From: Clostridia bacterium
Lineage (GTDB): Bacteria; Bacillota; Clostridia; UMGS1883; UMGS1540
Direction of reading: 5' to 3'
NCBI GenBank assembly: GCA_045533905.1
Contig: JAZSIR010000001.1
Coordinates: 32,001-96,000 of the forward strand
Length of the DNA: 64,000 nucleotides
Made by a program: the position numbers and the translations under genes. Below the pieces are notes generated by a model. It was not told the origin of the DNA and ran no database searches. It saw only the letters and a list, made by a program, of their open reading frames with translations. Shown here piece after piece: positions 1-62,283 of the stretch. Within the stretch, counting starts at the first letter, position 1. Each line of letters begins with the position of its first letter.

Positions 1-2
1 TG

Positions 3-3000
3 TCTTTGCACGTGAATGTAATCCCCAGGCGCGTCAATCCCAAAACTTTCAAAGGTGCTTTTAACAAACTCGTCCGAATAGTTGCTCTCACGCCTCGCGG
101 GGACGCTTTCAACCGCTTTTATATAGTCGGAGTCTTTGAGAGAAAAATCACTCTTGACAATTTTTTGGGGGTGTGATATATTATCCCTAGAGTAGTTCTC
201 TTTAACGTCTTGGACGTACGCCTTGCGGATTTCATGCAAATCAGCGAGATATTGAGAACTACTCTGTTTTTTATGTATAGCATCAATCAAGCCATACAGG
301 TTTGGAATACTATCTATCCCCGTTTTTACCATTTGCTTGTTAATAAGAAGTTTTTCTCTGTTATATTCCGTTGTTATTGCTTCGACATAATAAATCACAT
401 CACCCGGCATTACTTTTACATAAATCAAACCCGGATCACCATTTGCGTTTGTTTTGTAAAATACTTTATCGTAATTTTCAACAATATACGGAATTAGCTC
501 AACATCTGCTTCGGTAACAGGGTATTTTTCATTTGTTTTTTTGCCGTGGGAGTTCTTGATATGCCGAATATCATTATCGCGCAACGCATGAGAATAACCC
601 GATATATCCACATCAGAAGATACTTCATTTATCAAATCCCTTCCAACCTTTAGGAATTTAATGTAAGATTTTTCATTATCGTTTAGATAGGCTTTTTCTA
701 TGTACCGGTTGATGTCAGATTGCGTAACCTCAAAATCAAACACTTTATCCGCATATCCTAATGTCTTCAAGGAAAAGTCCACACCGCCCTCTGGAGCGGT
801 GTTCTTTTGTCCGTCTATTCTCTTGAGTGAATAGCTCTTTTCTTCCGATTCTCTGAAGAGATTTTCGAGGACATTTCTAAAAGCTCGGCTTCCGTTGCGT
901 TGGGATTGTCTCGGCAAAACTCCAACATTTTGATTGTGTCTTCCGCCTCCCAGGTTTCGAAGATTATTTTGACTACTGTTGACATTTTGCAACCAACTTC
1001 CTTGAGATACCCTTTGAGCAAAACTTGGTTTTCCGTTAATACCCTTGCCATCTTCTTCGTCCTCCAATAAATCAATTAAAATATCTAATTCAAAGCTTCC
1101 GTCATCGCCTTTTCTTTCGTAGAGGATTGTAGGATGTTCTGGGGTTTCCGTGCTGTATATGGCAAACAAAGCTTCTCCGTCAATTCTGCCTTTATACCAA
1201 CATCCAACCGTATCTGCGATTCTTTTAGGTTCGTGATTCTCAACCTGCCGAATCCAGTCTTCCAGCATTTTGAACTGCGTTGCGTTCAAATCTGTGCGCC
1301 ATTTTAACGAATAGCTTGTATTTCCATTATACTCCGCTCCCATGTTTTTTTCAAGAGTATCGGAGGAATTCTCTTTTTTGAGAGAAATTTCATTCTTGAC
1401 AGAATTTGAATTTTGTGGTATATTGTCATTAGAAACACTATCCCGTGTAGCCTGTCTTTCGGCAGGCAATCTGGTCATTCTTTCGAGAAGACCAATCTCG
1501 GCGGTAGTGTTTTCTTCAATCCCAACAATATCGTATAGGTATTTGTTGCCATCAGAAGCATTCCTAATCAACAGCTCGACATCAAAAGCTCGTACCTTTG
1601 TTATCTTTCCTCGATTATCTTTTATCGGGAAAGCAAAGGAATTAGCATAACGATACATACCATACTTCGCATCCTTATTATGTGTGTGCTGCGTCTTTTC
1701 CCACCTGCGATTCGTAGCTGTTTCTATCAATTCTCCAAAGCCGTCAACAGCTTTATTTTTACCTCTTGCGGCGGTGCGATTAACCCTACGGAGAAAAGTG
1801 GTGTACTTCGAATGCGTGTACTCTTGCGGCAAATCCTCGCCAATGTAGACCTTCTGCCCACTTTCTATAATCGTATAAACTTCGCCTATATGTTGTGCAA
1901 TGTAGCCTGCAACAGCTTGATGGCTGTTTAATTGCTTGTTGGTCAGTCCACTTTCTTCAATCCATACAAAGCTCTTGCCATCAACATTTTTCAAGCTAAA
2001 GTCTACGCCGTCCTCTGTGTCGGTGTTTTTTTGTGCCTCTGCGGTCTGTTTAGTATGAGCCTTTGCTTCCACCGCCTTTTTGTTTTCCACAGCCTTTGCG
2101 ACAGCAGTCTCAAACATATCGCGAAGACTTGTGATTTCGTCAAGCTTTGGCTGAATCTTTGCTTTTTCTTTGGCGCTCTTGCCTGCAAGAAAATCACGAA
2201 TTTTCCTAATCATCTCGGCAAGATACTCAATGTACTTCCGCAAGCCTTGCTTTGCCTTTTCGTCCGTGCCGTTGATGATGCTGTCAATAGCCTTATGGAA
2301 TCGCGCCTCATCGTTGCCGTAAAGGTAGAGAATGTTGTTTGCAGAAACTTCTTCCATTGCCTTTGCAAGAGATATTTCCTCGCCCTGTGCGGCGTATGCA
2401 CTTCGTTTTTGGTCTGCAACGGTAAATATAGACGGCTCATTGCCGGCAATGTGATTATACATCGCATACACAAACGCGCTGCCTTCTTCAGGGGCAAGGT
2501 CGACAACTCTATGCAGCGCTATTTCGTGCGCCGCATGGAAGACAATAGATACCTTCTGCCCGCCCACTTCTCTTTCAAAATCGAAGTCAATAGGCACTTC
2601 CCCCGTTTGCCTGTTGTACTCGGCGTTGCCTTTTAGGCCCTTTGCCATATACGCCTTTACGCCAAGTCCTTCTGCTAAAAGATTGAGCGTTGCAACCTCG
2701 CTTTGTTTAACATCGCTCGGCAGGTTTTCCGCAAGAACGCCGCTTTCCATATTTACAACTGCATTTCTAAACCTTTCTTTGGCGGCGAGGTCTTCCATTT
2801 TTCTGTCCATCTGCCCTGCCGTGAACGCATCTTCTTGTGCTTTGGATATAAATACGTCCTTGCCTTTTTTAACATTCAAGTCCGGTTGCTTAAAGCCTGT
2901 CATGTACGATGCCTTGACCTCTTCCAGCACTTTGTTAAAGGTTGCCCCGTCTGCATTCGAATAATTGGCCACAAGTTTCGCCCCTTCCTCGCCAAACCCC

Positions 3001-3191
3001 GTGACCTTTCTTACCTCGTCGGCGGTTATCTCCACGCCGTTCTCGGTGAGGACATCTAGTGTTTCGCTGCTTACGATTCCTCTTCTGCGGTTTTCAAGAA
3101 GGGTGTAACCGTCTACTCGATTTTTTCTACCGCGCCCATTGCCTTCCTTATACGCAAAAAGGCTGTGAAACCTAGGTTTCACATCCTTTTC
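3..3191 (-). CDS. Large polyvalent protein (partial, runs off the left edge): zincin-like metallopeptidase + LPD3-like + small unknown domain + PBECR-like RNase
   Basis: Hand translation gives no stop from 3191 to base 3. Motifs: HEIALH (2511-2528) with downstream MEEVSAN; HNKDAKYGMYRY...LLIRNASDGNKYLYDIV (LPD3-like); DIRHIKNSHG...PVTEADVELIPYIVENYD (PBECR-like). Recurrent DFSLK/SYSLK/EISLK linkers. True start codon uncertain. Confidence 0.85.
154..182 (+). promoter_or_regulatory. sigma-A promoter antisense to the polyvalent gene
   Basis: TTGACA (154-159), 17-bp spacer, TATATT (177-182) with extended -10 TG. Confidence 0.75.
189..272 (+). ncRNA. Putative three-way-junction small RNA 1
   Basis: Starts 7 nt after the -10. 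12-bp closing stem AGAGTAGTTCTC (189-200)/GAGAACTACTCT (254-265), inner hairpins 205-217 and 222-248, then GTTTTTT. Confidence 0.65.
781..808 (+). terminator. Intrinsic terminator inside the polyvalent gene linker (antisense orientation)
   Basis: ACACCGC-8 nt-GCGGTGT followed by TCTTTT. Confidence 0.6.
815..1051 (-). CDS. Nested 78-aa protein in an alternate frame of the polyvalent gene (candidate antitoxin/immunity protein)
   Basis: GGAGG (1061-1065) 9 nt before ATG 1051; MARVLTENQVLLKGYLKEVGC...; protein-like helical sequence while the host frame here is linker-like. Confidence 0.7.
   Translation of the reverse strand: MARVLTENQVLLKGYLKEVGCKMSTVVKIIFETWEAEDTIKMLEFCRDNPNATEAELLEMSSKISSENRKKRAIHSRE
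1326..1354 (-). promoter_or_regulatory. Internal sigma-A promoter, sense to the polyvalent gene, upstream of the nested ORF
   Basis: Minus strand TTGAAA (1354-1349), 17-bp spacer, TATAAT (1331-1326). Confidence 0.7.
1396..1424 (+). promoter_or_regulatory. Second antisense sigma-A promoter
   Basis: TTGACA (1396-1401), 17-bp spacer, TATATT (1419-1424) with extended -10 TG. Confidence 0.75.
1431..1516 (+). ncRNA. Putative three-way-junction small RNA 2
   Basis: Starts 7 nt after the -10. Closing stem AAACACTATC (1433-1442)/GGTAGTGTTT (1503-1512), hairpin GCCTGTC-TTTC-GGCAGGC (1450-1467), UUCG-capped hairpin 1472-1494, U-rich tail. Confidence 0.65.
2005..2032 (+). terminator. Intrinsic terminator inside the polyvalent gene linker (antisense orientation)
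   Basis: ACGCCG-10 nt-CGGTGT followed by TTTTTT; homologous to 781-808. Confidence 0.6.
3156..3190 (-). terminator. Terminator after the acyl-CoA synthetase gene
   Basis: Inverted repeat AAAAGGcTGTGAAAC-CTAG-GTTTCACAtCCTTTT. Confidence 0.75.
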
Positions 3192-4820
3192 TTATTTCTC
3201 GATTTGCTTTTTTACGAGGCTTTCGCCGCAGTATTTTTCGCGGAGTTTCGGTTTTTCGATTTTGCCGGTGGGGTTGCGCGGTACATCGGCGAAGATGATG
3301 CGGCGCGGTCTTTTATATCGTGGAAGTGCCTGACAAAACGCTTCGATATCTGCTTCCGTGCAGGTGCTGCCGGGCTGCAGTTCGATAATGGCCGCGGCAA
3401 TCTCGCCGAGTCTGTCATCCGGAAGGCCGATAACGCCCACGTCCTTAATCTCGCGGTTTGTGCGGAGAAAATCTTCAATCTGCACAGGGTAGAGGTTTTC
3501 GCCGCCTGTGATGATAACGTCTTTTTTGCGGTCTACGAGGAAAATGAAGCCATCCGCATCTTCCATGGCCATATCGCCTGTGTAGAGCCAGCCGTCGTGC
3601 AGTACCGCATTTGTGGCCACCTCATCGCGATAATAGCATTTCATAACGCCGGGGCCTTTTACTGCAAGTTCCCCCACTTCGCCACGAGAAACGGTGCTTC
3701 CGTTTTCGTCAATAATCTTCGTTTCCCAAAGATGACCGGCAATACCGATGGCGCCCACCTTATGTATATTCTCTACGCCAAGATGTACACAGCCGGGGCC
3801 GATAGATTCGGAAAGCCCGTAATTGGTATCATATGCGTGATTCGGGAAACGCTCACGCCAGCGCTTTATAAGGCTCGGCGGTACCGGCTGTGCGCCGATA
3901 TGCATGAGCCGCCAAGAAGCAAGGTCATATTCTTCTATATTGACATCGCCGCGGTCAATCGCATCGAGAATATCCTGCGCCCACGGCACGAGAAGCCATA
4001 CGATAGATGCCTTTTCCTCGGAAGCGGCTTTTAAAATCCACTCCGGCTTTACGCCGCGAAGAAGCACTGCTTTGCCGCCGACCAGAAAGCTTCCGAACCA
4101 ATGCATCTTCGCGCCGGTATGATACAGCGGCGGAATGCAGAGGAACACATCGTCCTTCGTTTGCCCGTGGTGTTTATTTTCCGTAATGCACGAGGATATG
4201 AGGCTTCTGTGTGCATGCAAAATAGCCTTGGGGAAGCCTGTGGTGCCGGAAGAAAAGTAGATGGCCGCATCGTCCTCTTCCGAAAGCGGTGCATCCGTAA
4301 AGTCTGCACACATTTCGGGGAGGCGCCCGTTATAATCTACGGCAAAATCGGGTGTATCCTCACCCACAAAGATATATTGTTTCACGCCGGGCATATCGCC
4401 CTTGGCCGCGGTTACGCGTTCTGTAAACTCAGGGCCAAAGATCAAAACATCCACCTCAGCAAGACCCGAGCAATAGGAAATTTCATCTGCTGCATAGCGG
4501 AAATTCATAGGCACGGCCAGTGCGCCCGTTTTGAGAATACCAAAATAGATGGGAAGCCACTCGAGGCAGTTCATAAGAAGGATTGCAACCTTATCCCCCT
4601 TCTTGATGCCAAGCGCTGTGAGCATATTGGCAAAGCGGCAGGCGCTTTCGTCAAACTCGCGCCATGTGATTTCGCGGCGCCCTGCATTTTTTGCGGCCGC
4701 TTCCACTAGCTCAAAATCGCGCCAAGCCTGCTTTTCACGCACCTCGGGGCTGATTTCTACAAGCGCCGCACAGCTACCGTACTTCCTTGCATTTTCTCTT
4801 AAAACCTCAGTAATAACCAT
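3192..4820 (-). CDS. AMP-binding acyl-CoA synthetase (class I adenylate-forming enzyme)
   Basis: YFSSGTTGFPK, YGLSE, GWLYTGD and PRNPTGKI motifs. Confidence 0.93.
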   Translation of the reverse strand: MVITEVLRENARKYGSCAALVEISPEVREKQAWRDFELVEAAAKNAGRREITWREFDESACRFANMLTALGIKKGDKVAILLMNCLEWLPIYFGILKTGALAVPMNFRYAADEISYCSGLAEVDVLIFGPEFTERVTAAKGDMPGVKQYIFVGEDTPDFAVDYNGRLPEMCADFTDAPLSEEDDAAIYFSSGTTGFPKAILHAHRSLISSCITENKHHGQTKDDVFLCIPPLYHTGAKMHWFGSFLVGGKAVLLRGVKPEWILKAASEEKASIVWLLVPWAQDILDAIDRGDVNIEEYDLASWRLMHIGAQPVPPSLIKRWRERFPNHAYDTNYGLSESIGPGCVHLGVENIHKVGAIGIAGHLWETKIIDENGSTVSRGEVGELAVKGPGVMKCYYRDEVATNAVLHDGWLYTGDMAMEDADGFIFLVDRKKDVIITGGENLYPVQIEDFLRTNREIKDVGVIGLPDDRLGEIAAAIIELQPGSTCTEADIEAFCQALPRYKRPRRIIFADVPRNPTGKIEKPKLREKYCGESLVKKQIEK

Positions 4821-53182: not shown

Positions 53183-54184
53183 CTACATAAGTCCCATACA
53201 CCAGATGACAACGAGTGCCGTAAGCGTTACAAGCGTATCAATGGTGATTCCGTAAAACATCGGCGCAAGGCCTGCCTTCTTAAAATCGGCAATGCTTGTG
53301 CCAAGGCCGATGGCCGCCAGTGCCGTCACCATCAGAAACTTACTTGCGCTCTTCATAAGGCCTGAAAGTTCTGCAGGAATCATACCGACACTGTTTGCAA
53401 CCGCAAGCGCCAGAAAGCCGCCGATGAACCAGGGGATGATTTTCATAAGATTGACCTTTTTGCCACCGCTTTCGGCTTGGAGTTCTTTCTGCTTTATACG
53501 GGTGCCGATATAGGCAAACACCAAAACGGTGGGAATGATGGCGATTGTGCGGGTGAGCTTCACCATCGTGGCAAAATCGCCTGCGGCCTCCGAAAATGCA
53601 TAGCCGGAGGCAACCACGCTTGCCGTGTCATTTACCGATGTGCCTGCCCAGATGCCATAGGCAATATCGCTCATACCGAGAACTTTTCCCATAATCGGAT
53701 ACAGGGCAATCATCACCATATCGAAGAGAAAAGTAGAGGATAGTGCAAAGGCGATATCCTTATCGTCGGCGTCAATGACGGGGGCAATCGCCGCCACCGC
53801 AGAGCCGCCACAGATGCCTGTCCCTGCCGAAATCAAATTGCCGAGCTTCCAGTTGAGCCCGAAGAGCCTGCGGACAAAATAGCCGCCACCGAAGCACATT
53901 GCAAAGGTAAACAGCATTACGAAAAAAGTCATTTTGCCGACAGACATAATCGTACCGACAGAAAGGGATGCGCCGAGAAGGATGATGGCACCTTTCAAGA
54001 TTCTTTTAGAGGTGAATTTGAGCGCCGGCTTTATCCAGTCCGGATGGAAAAAGCTATTGAGGATCGTGCCCATAAACAGGGCAATGATGGATGCGCCAAG
54101 AAGCTCGCCCGGAATGATGCGCTCGAGCCAGATGGATAAAACTGCAACCAGCATACAGATTGCAATCCCCGAGATAACTACCAT
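53183..54184 (-). CDS. YeiH / putative sulfate exporter family membrane protein
   Basis: GTGICGGSAVAA, GTSVNDTASVVA, VKLTR. Confidence 0.9.
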   Translation of the reverse strand: MVVISGIAICMLVAVLSIWLERIIPGELLGASIIALFMGTILNSFFHPDWIKPALKFTSKRILKGAIILLGASLSVGTIMSVGKMTFFVMLFTFAMCFGGGYFVRRLFGLNWKLGNLISAGTGICGGSAVAAIAPVIDADDKDIAFALSSTFLFDMVMIALYPIMGKVLGMSDIAYGIWAGTSVNDTASVVASGYAFSEAAGDFATMVKLTRTIAIIPTVLVFAYIGTRIKQKELQAESGGKKVNLMKIIPWFIGGFLALAVANSVGMIPAELSGLMKSASKFLMVTALAAIGLGTSIADFKKAGLAPMFYGITIDTLVTLTALVVIWCMGLM

Positions 54185-54231
54185 TGTTTTTTTTATTTTG
54201 TCTTCTCTCCTTTCAGCACCGGTATGTTAAT

Positions 54232-54420
54232 TCATATGCATATAAATCTTTTACTTCTGCATACATCATTTTTGAAAAGCTCTGCTCTTATAAACCGATA
54301 CAGTTTAGACCGCAAGCCTTGCGCCGGCGACCATAATATATATGTACCGGAATAAACGGAAATGGCATTTGCCATATCTGCCGCCAGATATACGCCTGCG
54401 GCACCGCTCCATCCGAAATA
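54232..54420 (-). pseudogene. C-terminal remnant of a beta-lactamase-family serine hydrolase
   Basis: Hand translation YFGWSGAAGVYLAAD...; compare FGWSGAYG in 57954-59078; cut off at the repeat at 54427. Confidence 0.6.
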
Positions 54421-54426
54421 GACATC

Positions 54427-54457
54427 CTTTATATAAAGACTGTATAATCTGGATGCC
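54427..54457 (+). repeat. 31-bp direct repeat, copy 1
   Basis: CTTTATATAAAGACTGTATAATCTGGATGCC, identical at 56530-56560. Confidence 0.9.
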
Positions 54458-54502
54458 GGTCTTTTTAGCTGCGGTTGTTACTACAACCACATTAGGTGTA
54501 AA

Positions 54503-56506
54503 CTATAGTTTGCCCAATATTTTTATTGCATAATATAACGCCCAGTCCTGATCGTTCGCAAAGCTATCATATTTATGACCTGATGCGACACCCGGTCTCA
54601 TATGTGCGTTCTCATATCCTGCTACGGAAGAATACTGCATTACCTTATACGGAACCAGATATCCGGCAGAAGCAAAACCATTTTCGAAATAAACGCAAAG
54701 ATTGTTCTTTACTACAGCCTCCGCATACTCCCTATACGCACTTTCAAATCCACACTTATATAGGAAATCATATGTTTCAGCAGACAATGCACATAGCCAT
54801 TGGGGCATAGTATCACCATAAGTTTTGCTTTTCCCAAACCAATACAAATCCCAGTAGCGAACAGCATTCATATTTACGTGATAATCAGGTTGCCTTGCAA
54901 AAAACGCATTTGATTTTTCGATGAATCCTGGTGCCATTTCAAGATATTTTTTATCACCTGAAAGCATATATGCCTGACACAAAATATTCACTTTGCCATT
55001 GAACATAAACTGCGTACATTTCACTTCTTCAGAAAAACATTTACTGCCGTCTCTTATAATTCTTTCTGCGTGAACAAGGGTATGATGTATAAGTCTTTCC
55101 CTGAGTTCATGCAAGCCTTCTGCCTGAAGTAATTCGCATATTTCGTATGTTCTTATGCATGGGGATTCCTGCTCTCCTCCCCGTACCTTTTCATAATACG
55201 AAACCATAGTACGCGCAGAAATTTCAAGACATTCCTTTTCTTTTGTAAGCAAATACCATTCAAGATAATACACAGCCATCCACGGATAATTATATGCACG
55301 CTTCCATTTATCATCGCGATTTACGCCGTTGTATACGGTTGCAGTGTCTTTATCAAAAATTTCCCTTTCAATGAACCTTCGGTGTTTAATCAAGGATTTC
55401 ATCATAGTTTCATCGTATCTTTTTTGCAAAGCCTGTGCCACTACAACCCCCATTGACAATCTTTCACGGCACGCATTGTTGTCCTGAAAACACTCATCAT
55501 AATATAGCTTGTCTGTGTCTCTGTCATAAATAAGGTATGCACCGTCAAGACAACTCCCCGATCTGTGATATTGTTGTTTTGTTGTGATAAACTCAGCTCT
55601 TTTTATAACAATTTCATCAAGCGGTAATAATATATTTATTTTTAACCATAATAATTTACCATTTACCGACAAATAAATCGTTCTTTCTCCAGGAGTCTTG
55701 AAGGAATGTGTCCATTTTGCTTTGTTTCCGAATTTAGTGTACTTTATTTCTTTATCTTCACATACAATTTTCAAATCATCCCAACAATCAAGACTATCAA
55801 ACTCGCATTCAACAGCTTCGTCTATAAAAGCACTGTATTTATTTGCAATTATTTTCATCCTGGAAAACTCATTCAATATTCCCTCGTCCGGAGCTATATT
55901 GTCGAAACGAAATACAAATGACAAAGTTATACTTTCTCCCGGTGCAACTACAATATCACCCGGATGCAACACTATATCACCACGGTAACTCGCGCCTACC
56001 TTTACGCGGCTCACATCGTAGCTGATGCTGTAATCAGCTATTCCTCCTTTGACTATGTTACATACAAGGTAAGGTTTTATACCGCTCGGTTTCGCTGAAT
56101 ACATCCACGCGCCATCTCCACCACACCAGACGTGTGTTATGCACGAATTATTATGCAAATTGGTTTTGTTCTCAAATGTACAGTTATAAGGAAAGTGTAT
56201 TCCCAGATTATCTTTTGTAAAAAAGTATTCAGAGCAATTATTATTTGTTATGCAGTAGCACTCTGTATATATCCCGTTTTTTACTCTTTTATTAACACAT
56301 AATTCGAGCGATTGATTTTCCGAATACACATCAATACCATCTTCTGCATTCATTACCCGATAATTCTCAAAGCCGATAACCTTTCCCCAATCTGAATTTT
56401 CTAAAATCCAGTTAAATCCATATTCATCATCCGGATTATATATCGCTGTGGTATAGCCATTAACTTCATCGAATGCAACACAAATTTTACCATCATTATA
56501 CTTCAT
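54503..56506 (-). CDS. Six-hairpin glycosidase-like protein
   Basis: RAYNYPW, RYWDLYWFGK..YGDT, FANDQDWAL; helical C-terminal half; AT-richer DNA. Confidence 0.65.
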   Translation of the reverse strand: MKYNDGKICVAFDEVNGYTTAIYNPDDEYGFNWILENSDWGKVIGFENYRVMNAEDGIDVYSENQSLELCVNKRVKNGIYTECYCITNNNCSEYFFTKDNLGIHFPYNCTFENKTNLHNNSCITHVWCGGDGAWMYSAKPSGIKPYLVCNIVKGGIADYSISYDVSRVKVGASYRGDIVLHPGDIVVAPGESITLSFVFRFDNIAPDEGILNEFSRMKIIANKYSAFIDEAVECEFDSLDCWDDLKIVCEDKEIKYTKFGNKAKWTHSFKTPGERTIYLSVNGKLLWLKINILLPLDEIVIKRAEFITTKQQYHRSGSCLDGAYLIYDRDTDKLYYDECFQDNNACRERLSMGVVVAQALQKRYDETMMKSLIKHRRFIEREIFDKDTATVYNGVNRDDKWKRAYNYPWMAVYYLEWYLLTKEKECLEISARTMVSYYEKVRGGEQESPCIRTYEICELLQAEGLHELRERLIHHTLVHAERIIRDGSKCFSEEVKCTQFMFNGKVNILCQAYMLSGDKKYLEMAPGFIEKSNAFFARQPDYHVNMNAVRYWDLYWFGKSKTYGDTMPQWLCALSAETYDFLYKCGFESAYREYAEAVVKNNLCVYFENGFASAGYLVPYKVMQYSSVAGYENAHMRPGVASGHKYDSFANDQDWALYYAIKILGKL

Positions 56507-56529
56507 ATCTATACACTCCTTTTGAAATT

Positions 56530-56560
56530 CTTTATATAAAGACTGTATAATCTGGATGCC
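56530..56560 (+). repeat. 31-bp direct repeat, copy 2
   Basis: Identical to 54427-54457. Confidence 0.9.
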
Positions 56561-56620
56561 ACTTTTTATGTTTATTGCGACACATAAGGTTTAGATGCAA
56601 CTTTTCAAAGGCTCCCTTGA

Positions 56621-57069
56621 GGCTCCCTTGTGTAAAGGGAGCTGTCAGCGAAGCTGACTGAGGGATTGTTTCACTACATTATCTATAAACATACAAACTC
56701 CATCAAAGTTTTTCAAAACATCAAGATTTGATATTCGGATAACTTTTATCCCATATTGTTCTAAATAAGCAGTTCTTTTTTCATCATTGAAAAGCCCGTC
56801 ATCTTCGTAGTGTTGCGAACCATCTAACTCTATAACAACATTTGCTTTTGCGCAATAGAAGTCTGCTATATATTTACCTAACACCTTTTGCCTTGTAAAC
56901 TTTATAGGATAACTTCTTAAAAAATCATACCAAAGATGTCTTTCTTCTTTAGTCATATTTTTTCTAAGTTCCTTTGCAAATGGAACTATTTTATTATTAT
57001 GTTTTCTATCCATTTACAACCCCTCCGAGTTTGCTTCGCAAACTCACCTCCCCTTGCACAGGGGAGGCT
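56621..57069 (-). mobile_element. DUF559 gene flanked by inverted REP-like double hairpins
   Basis: Left 56621-56669 and right 57016-57069 are related hairpin pairs in opposite orientation. Confidence 0.6.
56645..57013 (-). CDS. DUF559 (Vsr-like PD-(D/E)XK) endonuclease
   Basis: AKELRKNMTKEERHLW, FTRQ, YIADFYC, IELDGSQH. Confidence 0.92.
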   Translation of the reverse strand: MDRKHNNKIVPFAKELRKNMTKEERHLWYDFLRSYPIKFTRQKVLGKYIADFYCAKANVVIELDGSQHYEDDGLFNDEKRTAYLEQYGIKVIRISNLDVLKNFDGVCMFIDNVVKQSLSQLR

Positions 57070-57219
57070 TTTTCCTTTTCGTCATATTTCGACATCTTTA
57101 CATTGCGAGGCATAAGGTTTAGATGCAAGTCTTTTTAGCATAGCGAATGCGACATATAAGGTTTAGATGCAAACCTTTTTGGTGGCTGTTAATATCAAGA
57201 CATATAAATAAATTGGAAT

Positions 57220-57870
57220 TTACTTAACTGCCTTTAGCGTATAAGTTGCTCCCCAATGGTTCAAAACTTCGACCGCAGAAAACCCTGCTTCAAGTAATGC
57301 TTCCGTTTCATGCTTTACGGTAAGAGGTGTATCGTAATGATAGAATTCATCATCACAAATACCTTGTTCTGCTTTCAATGCTGACAAATTCCGTCTGTGC
57401 ATCTGTTCTTCTTCATCGGATAATGAAAAATAATCCGTAAGGATAAAACATCCCTTATCCTTTATTGCCGTATGTAGTTTAGAGTATAACGCAATCTTTG
57501 CTTCTTTTCTGAAATGATGCAGACTCTCCACCGATACCGCTGCATCGAATACGTTCTCGCCCAAAGGCACATTAAAATACGAGCCGAGTATCAAGGTTAT
57601 ATCCTTGCCCACGAATTTACGCTTGAGTTCGGCTAACATTCCTTGCGAGAGGTCAATTCCTGTAACCTTTGCTAACGGATTCTGCGTATAGTATTCTTGA
57701 AGTTCTAATCCCGTGCCACAGCCCAAATCAAGCACGTGGCAGTTTTCAGTGGTCGGCAATTGTTTTGCTGTAAAGGGATAGAATTCGTTTGCGGATTCGA
57801 TGTTGGTCATCATATGCTCATCGTATCCATCAAGTCTTGCTTCAAAAAAATCGCTCATTTTTTCAAGCAT
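57220..57870 (-). CDS. Class I SAM-dependent methyltransferase
   Basis: VLDLGCGTG, GIDLS. Confidence 0.92.
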   Translation of the reverse strand: MLEKMSDFFEARLDGYDEHMMTNIESANEFYPFTAKQLPTTENCHVLDLGCGTGLELQEYYTQNPLAKVTGIDLSQGMLAELKRKFVGKDITLILGSYFNVPLGENVFDAAVSVESLHHFRKEAKIALYSKLHTAIKDKGCFILTDYFSLSDEEEQMHRRNLSALKAEQGICDDEFYHYDTPLTVKHETEALLEAGFSAVEVLNHWGATYTLKAVK

Positions 57871-57953
57871 ACATAACCTCCTACAAATTCTTATTTATCT
57901 GTTCGACATTTTTCGACATATCAATAATACTTGCGTTAAGTTAATGGCAAAAA

Positions 57954-59078
57954 TCAATATATCATTGCATTAAATACAGCCTCTTCAAATCGACGTGCTG
58001 AACTATTTCCTGCTCCTCCATCAAATCTGGAGTTTTTCATAAATACTGCGCAAATATCATTTTTAGGATCTACCCAAAAGTGAGATCCATAAGCTCCACT
58101 CCACCCAAAACTTCCAACAGATAAATGCGGATATTCCTCATCCGTGATAACACGCACACCTAACCCCCATTTTTGATAGCCCGGCATAATTTTTTCCGAC
58201 ACATAGGCTTTTGAAAGCTTGTTGATTGCCTGTTCAGATACAATTCGATTATTGTTTATTTCCCCTTTATTTAAAAGCATTTGTGCAAAGTTTGAATAAT
58301 CATCTAGTGTGGACACCAATCCGGCACCTGCAAGCCTGTGTTCACAAGGAAATCTTTCAAACACACACCCGGAATAAGTTATACCAATATCATTTTTTTC
58401 ATCAACTTTGTTATGCATCATCATAAGCTGTTTCCATTGTTTTTCCGTTGGTGAAAAAGTTGTGTTTAACATATTGCACGGAACAAAAATTTCATTTTTC
58501 AAAAAAGTTTCATAGTCTTGTTTTGTTACATATTCAACAATCGCCGCAAGCACATCAAAAGCGGCAAACGCACTATATGCTTGCTTTGTAAATGGTTCAA
58601 AATCCAGTCCTGCGTTTATATAACACTTTACTGTATTTGAAATAGTTTCCCTATCATCCTCAGACATAGCAATAATCTTATCACTACCAAATCCGGATGT
58701 ATGTGTCAAGCAATGTAAAATTGTTACCGGTGTTTTTGTTTTTCCTAAATCTGCGCCATCGGAAGTTATAACATGTATATCTTCAAATTCAGGGATATAT
58801 TTACTAACAGGTTCATCAAGAGAAATCAATCCTCTATCAACCAAAATCAGTATTGCCACTGCTGTTATTGGTTTTGTCATCGAAGCAAGACGATATATCG
58901 TGGTGTCATCCACCTGTTCTTTACCATCAATGCTTGTATGCCCAAAATGTTTCTTCAATACCACTTCGCCATTCTGATATACAAAATAAGATGATCCAAA
59001 CAAATTATTGTTTGTTAAATCAAATGTTGCAATTTTCTCAACATTGTGTTTGAGTTTTTCTTTGTTCAACAGTCTCAT
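57954..59078 (-). CDS. Serine hydrolase, beta-lactamase family
   Basis: ASMTK (SxxK), LTHTSG, FGWSGAYG; no signal peptide. Confidence 0.92.
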   Translation of the reverse strand: MRLLNKEKLKHNVEKIATFDLTNNNLFGSSYFVYQNGEVVLKKHFGHTSIDGKEQVDDTTIYRLASMTKPITAVAILILVDRGLISLDEPVSKYIPEFEDIHVITSDGADLGKTKTPVTILHCLTHTSGFGSDKIIAMSEDDRETISNTVKCYINAGLDFEPFTKQAYSAFAAFDVLAAIVEYVTKQDYETFLKNEIFVPCNMLNTTFSPTEKQWKQLMMMHNKVDEKNDIGITYSGCVFERFPCEHRLAGAGLVSTLDDYSNFAQMLLNKGEINNNRIVSEQAINKLSKAYVSEKIMPGYQKWGLGVRVITDEEYPHLSVGSFGWSGAYGSHFWVDPKNDICAVFMKNSRFDGGAGNSSARRFEEAVFNAMIY

Positions 59079-59181
59079 GTTTTGTTTCTCCTTTTATTTA
59101 CTAAAAAATGTTGTTAATAGTTCATATAAACTTATGTCTAAAAAATGTATAAACAAATTTTAAGTTATCTCCGGACATCTA

Positions 59182-60030
59182 TCAATACAGCCCCACATCC
59201 ACAAAAACCGGCGAATGATCAGACAAAGGTAGGTAATAATCCGGGGTATACCGTTCAAAACGATGCACAAAACCTGCCGGTGAAAATTTCACCATAATAT
59301 GATCTATTCCTTTTTCAAACGGTGCTCTCACATAAGGCTTGTAGCCATCGCCAAAACAATAGTGGTAGCCCCAATCCTGGTCAGCAAAATCCGTGGCAAT
59401 ATCGTGGGCGTGTGCATAACCTCTGCTTAGCGCATTTTGAATTACAGAGCTTGTGTATCTTGCGTTAAAATCGCCCACCAAAACCACAGGACAGTTGTAT
59501 ATGTTATGAAATTTCTCCAGACGGTCCATTGCCATGTTCAGTTGGTAAACTCTCGCCTCATCAGAACCTGCCTGATAGTTTTTTGAATCAGAACTACCAC
59601 TCATCCACCAAAGATGGGTAGTCATAAAAACAAGCTTTTTCCCGTCTGTTTTATCTTGAAACACAGCACAGCACCATGATTTTGTTCCGTTGTTGTTGAA
59701 TTCGCCATCCCAGCCCGGAACTTCCGTAGGGTACATCAAAAAATCAGAATCCAACAGCTCCAGTCGCTCCTGACGATACAGTACCGGAGTATCTTTACCC
59801 CACAGCAAGGCATAACAATACCCCTGCTCCAACAGCCCCTGAATAATATGATCAGACATAACATGTGACATTTCTTGGAAACCAATGATGTCGGGCTGTG
59901 TATCAGCATAAACCCGTACCATCCCCTTTGCCCTTGCAATCGCAGAACAATCTTCTCCTTTTATTTCCCATGCAGGGAGATTGTTGTCACACTTCCAAAC
60001 ATTGTGACTCATAATACGCAACTTCCCCAT
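59182..60030 (-). CDS. Endonuclease/exonuclease/phosphatase family protein
   Basis: MSHNV, DIIGFQE, GDFNA, IDHI, SDHSPV. Confidence 0.92.
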   Translation of the reverse strand: MGKLRIMSHNVWKCDNNLPAWEIKGEDCSAIARAKGMVRVYADTQPDIIGFQEMSHVMSDHIIQGLLEQGYCYALLWGKDTPVLYRQERLELLDSDFLMYPTEVPGWDGEFNNNGTKSWCCAVFQDKTDGKKLVFMTTHLWWMSGSSDSKNYQAGSDEARVYQLNMAMDRLEKFHNIYNCPVVLVGDFNARYTSSVIQNALSRGYAHAHDIATDFADQDWGYHYCFGDGYKPYVRAPFEKGIDHIMVKFSPAGFVHRFERYTPDYYLPLSDHSPVFVDVGLY

Positions 60031-60170
60031 AAAAATTCCTCCAATAATTTTTTGATATGTGTAAAAAAACACTTTGACTTTCAATATATTTTGATATATT
60101 CACTCTATAAACTCGTGTTAAGTCAAAAGCGAAAAACATTACCGTTCTGCATCTTCATTAAGTGTTTCAA

Positions 60171-60224
60171 TATAAAAACTTGTCCTTCTTTCAAATCTCA
60201 CGTATGCTCAATCGGATTTTCGTA
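60171..60224 (-). pseudogene. Short remnant resembling a TIGR04076-family protein
   Basis: YENPIEHT*DLKEGQVFI, recalled family motif YENPIEHACD..EGQVF with Cys replaced by a stop. Confidence 0.4.
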
Positions 60225-60258
60225 TATAATTCGTGGCCGATTCAGTTGCGGGCACTTC

Positions 60259-62283
60259 TCAGCTAATAACAGCTTTTTTCAAAACAACAACTCCATAAGG
60301 TTTTATCATTTCTTCTTCGAAATTGCCGCTTATAATTTCATAACCGGCTGGCAAATTCACCTTCTTTTCCTCATTATTGAAATTCATAATAAAAATGTAA
60401 TTATTGTTTGAGGAATAGCGCATTGTTACGCTTACATTTTCAGGCGTTTCGAAAACCTTATCAGCTGATATAATGTCCTTAAGCCATTCTTTATACAATT
60501 TTATATACCCATCAGTCATTAAATCCGTAGCTATGTAATATGCCTTACCTTTGCCATATTCATTTACTGTTACGGCAGGCATATCTTTATAAAAATCTTC
60601 ACAGTATTTTCCTATTACCGTCGCTCCTTCGAGGTATGCAAGCTCGCAATATTTCTCACTTCGGTATGACGTACCAAACATTTTGACAAAATTATACTGA
60701 CCGTCATACAGCGAATCCGTTTCCTCCGTCTTTACACCAAGTAATTTTCGCAAAGGATAACACTCTTTATCAAAAAAGCTCAGACCATATTCATCCACAA
60801 CGCCTGTTCCGAAAGTGGTTACAAAAATCCCGCCGTTTTTTACATAATCCTCGATTTTTTCTTTCAGACCATTTTTTAACATAAAAAGCATCGGTGCAAT
60901 GACAACTTTATATTTCGAGAAATCGTCATTTTCAAAAACAAAATCACAGCCTATATTAAGCTGCCACAATGCTCCGTAGTTTTTCATAAGAGTATCTGAA
61001 TATCCTTTATCCTCGTCTATATTTCTGTATGCCTGCGAAATTCTCAAACTCCAGAAACTGTCGTAATCGAACAGAATCGCCACTTCATTTCGTGTAAGTG
61101 AACTTGCAATTTCTCCAATGTTTTTGAGCTCTTCTCCCACCTCTGCAACTTCTCTGAATACTCTCGTATCCTCACTGTTATCATGCCCGACAACAGCACC
61201 GTGGAACTGCTCGGACTGGCCTCTGCTTTTTCTCCACTGGAAATACTGAACGGTATTGCTGCCATGAGCAACCGCCTGCATCGATGCCAAAAGGTGCATG
61301 CCCGGGCGTCTTAACCTTGAAACCGCCTGCCAGTTTGTTGCAGAAGGTGAGCTTTCCATCAACATAAACGGCTTATCCTTTTTAAATGAGTTGAACAGCG
61401 AATGAAACAATGCAGTTTCAGCTGCCTCTTTGTATTCGTTATCACTTGAATGCCATGCCGGGTAATTATCCCAAGATATAACATCTATGCTTTTTGAAAG
61501 CTTGGCATAGTCAATTTCCCAGAATCTCATAAAATTCGTCGTAACGGGAATATCCGGATTTATTCTCTTTACTGCAGCTGCTTCGCAGTCAAGAAAATCC
61601 TGCAGCATAGAATTTTTAAACCTGACCCACTCCAGTTTAAGAGGATTGGAAGAATTTTCTCCGTGTTGCCCCGGAGGCTCAATCTGCGAAAAGCTCTGAT
61701 ATGTATGCGACCAAAACCCATTCCACCATTTTTCATTAAGGCTATCTATGGTTTTATACTTATTTTCAAGCCATTTTCTGAAATTTTCACAGCACAACGG
61801 GCAATGGCAATCCCGTACATTATATTCATTGGAAATATGCCACATCAAAATACCCGGATGATTTGAATATCTTTCAGCAAGCTTTGTGTTGATTATTCTC
61901 ACTTTTTCTCTGTATACAGGCGATGAATAGCAGTTGTTGTGACGGTTTCCGAATCTGTCTCTTATTCCGTCCTCCTGCACACGTTTTACTTCCGGATATT
62001 TTTCAGCCATCCATGCAGGCATTGCACCGGACGGTGTCGCAAGTATTGTATATATACCGTTTTCATAAAGAGTATCTATAATTTTATCAAGCCATTCGAA
62101 TTCAAAAACGCCTTCCTTCGGCTCAAGCCTGGACCATGCAAAAATCCCTACCGACATAACATTACAGCCGGACTTTTTCATCAGCTCAATATCCTTTTCA
62201 AGAACTTCAGGATAACTGAGCCATTGGTCAGGGTTATAATCACAACCGTGCCATATACCTCTTAATTTTTGATTAATGTTCAT
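60259..62283 (-). CDS. Beta-galactosidase, GH42
   Basis: GCDYNPDQW, FAWSRLEP, WHISNEY, SWDNYP, FMLMES. Confidence 0.95.
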   Translation of the reverse strand: MNINQKLRGIWHGCDYNPDQWLSYPEVLEKDIELMKKSGCNVMSVGIFAWSRLEPKEGVFEFEWLDKIIDTLYENGIYTILATPSGAMPAWMAEKYPEVKRVQEDGIRDRFGNRHNNCYSSPVYREKVRIINTKLAERYSNHPGILMWHISNEYNVRDCHCPLCCENFRKWLENKYKTIDSLNEKWWNGFWSHTYQSFSQIEPPGQHGENSSNPLKLEWVRFKNSMLQDFLDCEAAAVKRINPDIPVTTNFMRFWEIDYAKLSKSIDVISWDNYPAWHSSDNEYKEAAETALFHSLFNSFKKDKPFMLMESSPSATNWQAVSRLRRPGMHLLASMQAVAHGSNTVQYFQWRKSRGQSEQFHGAVVGHDNSEDTRVFREVAEVGEELKNIGEIASSLTRNEVAILFDYDSFWSLRISQAYRNIDEDKGYSDTLMKNYGALWQLNIGCDFVFENDDFSKYKVVIAPMLFMLKNGLKEKIEDYVKNGGIFVTTFGTGVVDEYGLSFFDKECYPLRKLLGVKTEETDSLYDGQYNFVKMFGTSYRSEKYCELAYLEGATVIGKYCEDFYKDMPAVTVNEYGKGKAYYIATDLMTDGYIKLYKEWLKDIISADKVFETPENVSVTMRYSSNNNYIFIMNFNNEEKKVNLPAGYEIISGNFEEEMIKPYGVVVLKKAVIS

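Follow-up and report, generated by a model that had tools for sequence, protein, structure and literature searches.

A candidate immunity gene overprinted out of frame on a phage polyvalent-protein gene in Clostridia

We describe a 78-codon gene that lies out of frame within a much larger ORF of a Clostridia bacterium. The window, i.e., the whole stretch of DNA analyzed here, is 64,000 nt long, and its features are listed in Table 1. Judging from sequence comparisons, the ORF at 815–1051 (− strand) is a real gene overprinted on a linker of a phage polyvalent protein. We think it rather probable that this is an embedded immunity gene, whose product neutralizes a virion-delivered, predicted RelE-like domain (domain A) encoded just upstream.

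Table 1. Positions of the nested gene, its signals, and the surrounding features (window coordinates unless a locus is named)
Feature	Position	Strand	Remarks
Nested 78-aa gene (P0001)	815..1051	-	Four-helix protein, proposed immunity/antitoxin; from sequence, pN/pS, AF2, and homologs
Shine–Dalgarno GGAGG for the nested gene	1061..1065	-	Within the host codons for L-E-D; 9 nt to the nested ATG
Internal sigma70-type promoter TTGAAA-17-TATAAT	1326..1354	-	Within the linker that precedes domain A; predicted to serve the nested gene alone
7-bp hairpin, possible terminator (putative function)	781..802		Lies 13 nt beyond the stop of the nested gene, with its T-run on the + strand
Domain A of the host protein, 83 aa, proposed toxic effector	1053..1301	-	Host-frame pN/pS 0.48; AF2 pLDDT 70.6; weak RelE-family matches
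Antisense promoter TTGACA-17-TATATT (154-182) and predicted ~85-nt RNA with U-run (about 188-274)	154..275	+	PBECR3 C-terminal linker; z −4.2
Antisense promoter TTGACA-17-TATATT (1396-1424) and predicted RNA (about 1432-1513)	1396..1515	+	C-terminal linker of the domain before cassette A; z −6.1
Third antisense promoter and predicted structured RNA	L013:7549-7638	+	Just before the window
Host ORF, phage polyvalent-protein fragment, 1,365 aa in all (G000:C11:31085-35182)	1..3182	-	Extends past the window start
PBECR3 domain, host aa 857-941	360..614	-	Next cassette; E 9.7e-13
Repeat of 39 bp, matching the 3' end of the adjacent 550-aa gene	3187..3225	-	90% identical copy at the far end of the host ORF

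The nested ORF is 237 bp long and occupies the +1 frame relative to the large ORF, running from an ATG (1051–1049) through 78 codons to a TAG (817–815); around its start, the host frame on the − strand reads ...ILIDLLEDEEDGKGING.... Both signals named in the preliminary description, GGAGG 9 nt before the ATG and TTGAAA-17-TATAAT (1354–1326, − strand; 11/12 matches), are found in the window. Its portrayal of the host frame as linker-like yet stop-free, and of the nested product as helical and globular, also agrees with our results: read in the host frame, the overlap is without stops and rich in N, S, Q, G, and R, and the AF2 model of the nested protein consists of four helices (mean pLDDT 86.5). 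The net charge of the nested protein is 0, i.e., it is not notably acidic. We rejected ORF length as proof of a nested gene, as a +1 stop-free stretch of at least 86 codons arose in 58% of 2000 synonymous shuffles of the host gene; the nested stretch itself stayed open in 5.6% of 2000 such shuffles. Since the length in the window is not beyond chance, the case for the nested gene rests on its homologs.

Fourteen close homologs of the nested protein are annotated as proteins of 70–88 aa, and 12 of them start at the same Met. A profile of the family matches 84 clusters at 50% identity, mostly of 60–110 aa, with the match beginning within the first residues. We fetched 23 genome loci for comparison of the nested gene and computed frame-wise selection over 17 cassettes in which both frames are open. 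As simple Nei–Gojobori proportions on related, non-independent sequences, with the overlap of the frames not modelled, pN/pS over the overlap was 0.47 in the nested frame versus 1.15 in the host frame, with pN below pS in the nested frame for 136 of 136 pairs, and over the domain A stretch it was 0.48 in the host frame versus 1.07 in the +1 frame. Selection therefore changes frame at the nested ATG, where the most variable codon position also shifts: up to that point it is the third position of the host codons, and beyond it the first, corresponding to the third position of the nested codons. Additionally, an SD-like word lies upstream of the nested start in 32 of 34 cassettes. The overprinted gene put forward in the preliminary description, which had called for dN/dS in both frames, is borne out by this nested-frame selection, the conserved RBS and start, and the gene calls elsewhere.

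The same comparisons bear on the host frame. Given the nested protein, a stop-free host frame has a chance probability of 0.0005 in the window, and at none of the 19 host-open loci does this value exceed 0.03. A broad family profile search gave matches in 17 of 400 class genomes and 12 of 87 order genomes; among the 31 distinct matches, including the window, the −1 frame was stop-free in 28 and the other frame in 0. In these sequences, the host frame over the overlap is kept open and is otherwise a passenger. A count of T avoidance before risky codons was set aside as circular, the loci having been picked for an open host frame.

That the ORF is merely a chance open frame, with chance matches to an RBS and a promoter, is barely credible. 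Such a length is common in one window, as noted above, and about 15 of the 31 RBS-led +1 ORFs observed per 70 kb would be expected from synonymous shuffles, but selection in the nested frame, intact nested copies whose host frame is broken, and a free-standing operon (below) argue against chance, and the switch of pN/pS between frames together with the openness of the −1 frame (28/31 vs 0/31) refutes it.

Searches that started from the domain matched 4 of 22, 7 of 87, and 6 of 399 genomes, corresponding to 10 distinct places including the window, 7 of which were found without using the nested gene. An intact nested gene was present in all 10 places, in nine with an RBS and ATG and in the tenth as an open frame with a GTG start. 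A host frame kept intact over a broken nested frame, which had been named as evidence against the gene, was seen in none of the homologs examined, and the reverse does occur: the intact nested gene contains one to three host-frame stops in L026, L028, L029, and L033b. In L087 and L088, the domain is broken and the nested gene intact, and in L035 both frames are broken. Scans of viral sequences yielded one real contig, a second match (L003) being false. A metagenome scan with a three-sequence domain alignment gave no match.

The cassette in the window begins with a promoter in the preceding linker, followed by the domain, whose last helix contains the RBS, and then by the small gene; this gene is in the +1 frame, and its off-frame reading serves as the next linker of the giant protein. 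Single genes can carry multiple nested ORFs, each after another domain (three in L002, three in L047, and at least four in L017). When domain types were assigned by eye, all 33 of 33 nested genes had the same type of upstream domain as their nearest nested neighbour, a pairing that physical linkage alone could yield. We also observed further nested +1 ORFs with an RBS after other domains (L002:3503-3685, L017:7337, L014:6488, L017:4655, and L034:1667), some of which fall outside the family profile used.

Of 19 cassettes, 11 have a promoter with at least 10 of 12 matches 35–65 nt upstream of domain A; the other 8 are without their own promoter, and several of these sit behind another nested cassette. 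In total, the 18 host ORFs contained 25 sense and 23 antisense promoter matches, compared with about 10 each in shuffles. The promoter sits before the domain rather than before the small gene, as it would if it drove a complete toxin–antitoxin operon with the domain translated from a leaderless or weak start, and 9 of 11 cassettes have a TTG or GTG codon, without an RBS, close to the predicted start site. We nevertheless regard such an operon as highly improbable: the positions of these codons are not conserved, the predicted start site falls at the first residues of the domain in L025 and L036, any domain product would continue to the end of the giant ORF, and none of the 11 promoter-bearing cassettes has an RBS-led host-frame start anywhere from the promoter through codon 20 of the domain. 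Because of this last result, the domain should exist only within the giant protein, and the small protein should be the sole product of the internal transcript. Hence, of the captured toxin–antitoxin operon proposed in the preliminary description, the separately translatable nested gene with its RBS and the conserved internal promoter are supported, whereas the production of both partners is not.

Domain A was modelled by AF2 as a helix (11–23), four strands (30–32, 35–44, 47–54, and 62–68), and a final helix (72–85). In a VIA search with the domain, RelE/ParE-family chains made up 18 of the top 50 rows, including a Cami1 row that we presume to belong to the family, and two CdiA toxins were also present; the best match had a Z of 4.8 (rmsd 3.3, 76 aligned), and a Z below 5 denotes a common arrangement on the scale of the tool. 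Foldseek placed HigB2 at ranks 3–6 with weak E values of 0.3–0.5. Domain A had no sequence match in Pfam, PHROG, or PDB and no usable match in the ESM Atlas. The residues invariant among 18 sequences are W5, L9, W39, G46, F50, Y53, S54, T62, Y65, E75, L79, and E84. When we looked for an RNase site, i.e., either a first-helix His together with Ser/Thr or the basic residues typical of RelE, none was conserved, as no His, Arg, or Lys is invariant among the 18 sequences. Moreover, the domain A of the window is acidic (net charge −11), unlike a RelE-type RNase. The helix–four strands–helix topology of the model agrees with the RelE/ParE (BECR) core as defined in the accessible text of PMC5512222, namely, a sheet of four or five strands preceded by an N-terminal helix.

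On the basis of its model, domain A likely has a RelE/ParE-like fold. RNase activity is doubtful, and the domain may act in a non-catalytic, ParE-like mode. Since the fold matches are weak (Z below 5) and no catalytic residues are conserved, we only infer that the domain is toxic. The toxin role that the preliminary description put forward as an inference is in line with the RelE/ParE-like topology and structural neighbours of the domain, all of them weak matches. Among proteins of 46–158 aa, we found no clean stand-alone domain A; the nine matches were all apparent fragments.

The nested family was seen once as a two-gene operon, at L057. This is an ordinary operon comprising TTGACG-17-TATAAT, an RBS, a 114-aa ORF, TAG, a second RBS, and a 64-aa member of the nested family (E 2e-13). 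The 64-aa gene has the same +1 phase and contains 11 off-frame stops, and it is followed by a hairpin with a T-run. The operon lies just before a terminase small subunit gene in a prophage-like region; viral scans with the L057 protein gave no match. Its domain is 39% identical to an embedded domain of type B (E 8e-15), and domain B is linked to domain A only weakly (hhalign E 0.12 and 0.0011). Fourteen further proteins of 114–129 aa, known from protein sequences alone (12 of the 14 viewed), match the L057 domain protein over most of the length of the latter. Thus, the free-standing two-gene homolog suggested as a check exists for the nested family, and its domain is of type B rather than type A. 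Adjacent, co-inherited domain and small gene were found in 10 of 10 domain-first places for domain A, and in free-standing form for type B.

Several stand-alone effector-like genes (L057:1149-1493, L075:9936-10478, and P0098–P0111) start with interchangeable short N-terminal motifs, of the HPRxxxGxF type and two others, and a PBECR1 protein in the same region shares such a motif, which is possibly a head-packaging signal. Separately, L033:4353-5810 looks like a small array of remnants: it contains two nested-family genes, one of them without a domain, together with two RNA copies of the MuF_C type outside the main ORF.

The small protein could have a function independent of the domain, e.g., as an exclusion factor or small regulator in lysogens, on a linker that tolerates overprinting. 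It does survive alone in chromosomes, and the best fold match of its model is to a helical part of DdrC, a DNA-binding protein (Z 8.6, rmsd 3.0, 78 aligned), a match under the helical-bundle bar of the tool. Otherwise, the fold search returned generic helical bundles only, the ESM Atlas unnamed clusters only, and the viral structure library no match at E 0.001; sequence searches of Pfam, PHROG, and PDB gave nothing useful, with no antitoxin family matched in Pfam or among solved structures. We consider an independent function unlikely, however, as each intact domain A found is followed by the nested gene, as the order of domain and small gene is kept even in the free-standing operon, and as, across 18 host ORFs, no PBECR3, LPD3, or MuF_C domain was seen with a nested family gene after it.

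Alternatively, the small protein may be a partner rather than an antidote, i.e., a chaperone, activator, or co-factor of a non-toxic anti-defence domain. The absence of conserved catalytic residues in domain A and its acidic surface fit this, and cognate pairing would fit any partnership. Conversely, orphan small genes persist as the domain decays, which suits protection better than help, and the position of the promoter suits production of the small protein in the absence of the domain; a partnership of this kind therefore seems to us improbable, and we prefer to read the nested gene as an embedded immunity gene.

The other domains of the host gene are accompanied by a different element. Three antisense elements, each with a predicted RNA of 75–85 nt ending in a U-run, cover the C-terminal linkers of the three domains other than domain A (Table 1), and those in the window are predicted to form a closed two-hairpin fold of about 85 nt. 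Across the 18 host ORFs, 17 of 18 such antisense promoters were followed by structure at a z of −2.6 or lower (13 below −3), compared with 3 of 60 random antisense windows used as a control. An antisense promoter with a predicted RNA was present at 11 of 11 PBECR3, LPD3, and MuF_C domains in these ORFs, and a twelfth in L078 makes 12 of 12. None of the elements from 6 loci matched Rfam. Two-sided changes were observed in 7 of 16 predicted pairs of the MuF_C-linked RNAs (six copies); the joint fold of the PBECR3-linked RNAs (five copies) aligned poorly, with one hairpin supported. We infer that these antisense RNAs are expressed and act as antitoxins.

Two motifs recur along the host protein. 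GVDFSLK coincides with + strand T-run hairpins at about 1985–2030 and 781–802, which may end antisense transcription between cassettes, and (Y/F/H)SLK recurs at cassette borders in the window and its relatives and could be a recombination or cleavage signal.

The host ORF has PBECR3 and LPD3 domains above the Pfam cut-off and is therefore a piece of a phage polyvalent-protein gene; its relatives carry MuF_C, LPD23, and ART-PolyVal. Full-length relatives of the host protein reach 2,400–3,000 aa (L002, L014, L021, and L078), and in L014 an internal virion protein (PHROG 511) is encoded two genes upstream of the polyvalent gene. A Phage_Mu_F domain was absent from the host ORF and from 18 other proteins scanned. 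The copy in the window is cut at both ends and forms a chromosomal insert between two 39-bp copies, the second at about G000:C11 31080–31118; the neighbouring 550-aa gene is presumably acyl-CoA-synthetase-like. The closest relative (L099) has nothing at the insertion site, and the six further relatives that were read have no such ORF after the neighbouring gene. The 39-bp duplication appears to mark the 4.1-kb piece as an insertion, the genomes being metagenome-assembled, so that an assembly join is possible behind any single insert. Many other relative loci are fragments among housekeeping genes. Related fragments were also seen at many unrelated chromosomal sites with no integrase seen nearby, and the polyvalent fragment of L018 is flanked by 41-bp repeats. 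Elsewhere in the window, positions 54001–61000 have a GC content of 34–41% versus about 49% and are probably a separate island.

HigBA-type type II toxin–antitoxin operons are toxin-first and belong to the RelE superfamily. The cassette resembles them in its order of promoter, RelE-like domain, and small helical gene and in its weak structural similarity to HigB chains, but its domain A has no separate start or stop and no conserved RelE catalytic residues, and its small protein matches no antitoxin family in Pfam or among solved structures. Phage polyvalent proteins, as outlined in the accessible text of Iyer et al. (2017, PMC5512222), are large multidomain phage proteins that contain PBECR3, LPD3, MuF_C, and ART-PolyVal domains in shuffled order and are encoded near virion genes. 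The host gene and its relatives are alike in carrying these domains and, in L014, in having a virion gene nearby, and they differ in that domain A matches no Pfam family; in that text, out-of-frame genes, internal promoters, and antisense RNAs inside polyvalent genes are not mentioned.

Two other systems come close. In Rpn (Zhong et al., 10.1101/2023.05.02.539157), according to the portion of the preprint available, a gene within a gene has an internal promoter and translation start, and its small product, an in-frame C-terminal tail of the PD-(D/E)XK nuclease, is proposed to block the larger one. The nested gene likewise has an internal promoter and its own start inside a larger gene; unlike the Rpn small proteins so described, its product is read in the +1 frame, is unrelated in sequence to the host protein, and is repeated per cassette in a phage gene. 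For MuF polymorphic toxins (Jamet et al. 2017, PMC5576092), the available sections report a small ORF directly after the toxin domain in 89.4% of 191 muf toxin genes. L057 is similar to these in that a phage-encoded domain is at once followed by a small ORF, whereas the cassettes differ from the arrangement in those sections in having no MuF N-terminal domain, an internal domain A, and a small ORF that is read through so that more domains follow. A 2026 BECR preprint, in its accessible part, mentions downstream immunity genes for MuF-linked domains and not nested ones, and a literature search that took in few subscription papers and no supplements turned up neither out-of-frame immunity genes nor antisense RNAs described within polyvalent genes. 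The arrangement would thus work like a MuF-type toxin–immunity pair folded into a polyvalent gene, and also like Rpn, but it is not a member of either family.

We propose the following course of events. From the gene context and the accessible text of PMC5512222, the giant protein would be packaged in the virion and injected on infection. Its variable middle is a string of cassettes. The internal promoter would give the cell the small protein without the domain; with a promoter but no domain start, a cell carrying the DNA would make the small protein alone. Such a cell would be safe from the domain both during production of the giant protein and upon its injection by a related phage. The cassette may have originated from a coupled two-gene toxin–immunity operon, as in L057, that lost the stop codon of the toxin and from which off-frame stops were then purged, so that the pair would have become a portable in-frame module. 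Bacteria would keep inserted fragments, often just the small gene, as acquired immunity, and the 4.1-kb insert of the window may be one such capture. More tentatively, and with somewhat less than even confidence, we suggest that Clostridia phage polyvalent genes are self-immunizing arrays, in which each toxic domain has a hidden out-of-frame gene (RelE-like domains) or an antisense RNA (PBECR3, LPD3, and MuF_C domains), and from which bacteria capture pieces as immunity.

If this is true, it would explain how phages can produce and rearrange long strings of toxic domains while the producing cell stays unharmed, and the low-complexity linkers of polyvalent proteins would then read as hidden genes missed by annotation. 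The overlap described here is a natural same-strand, out-of-frame one, and along the stretch common to both genes it is the larger that acts as the passenger. Every cassette names a directly testable candidate pair of effector and neutralizer, and the chromosomal orphans would point to a form of acquired anti-phage immunity.
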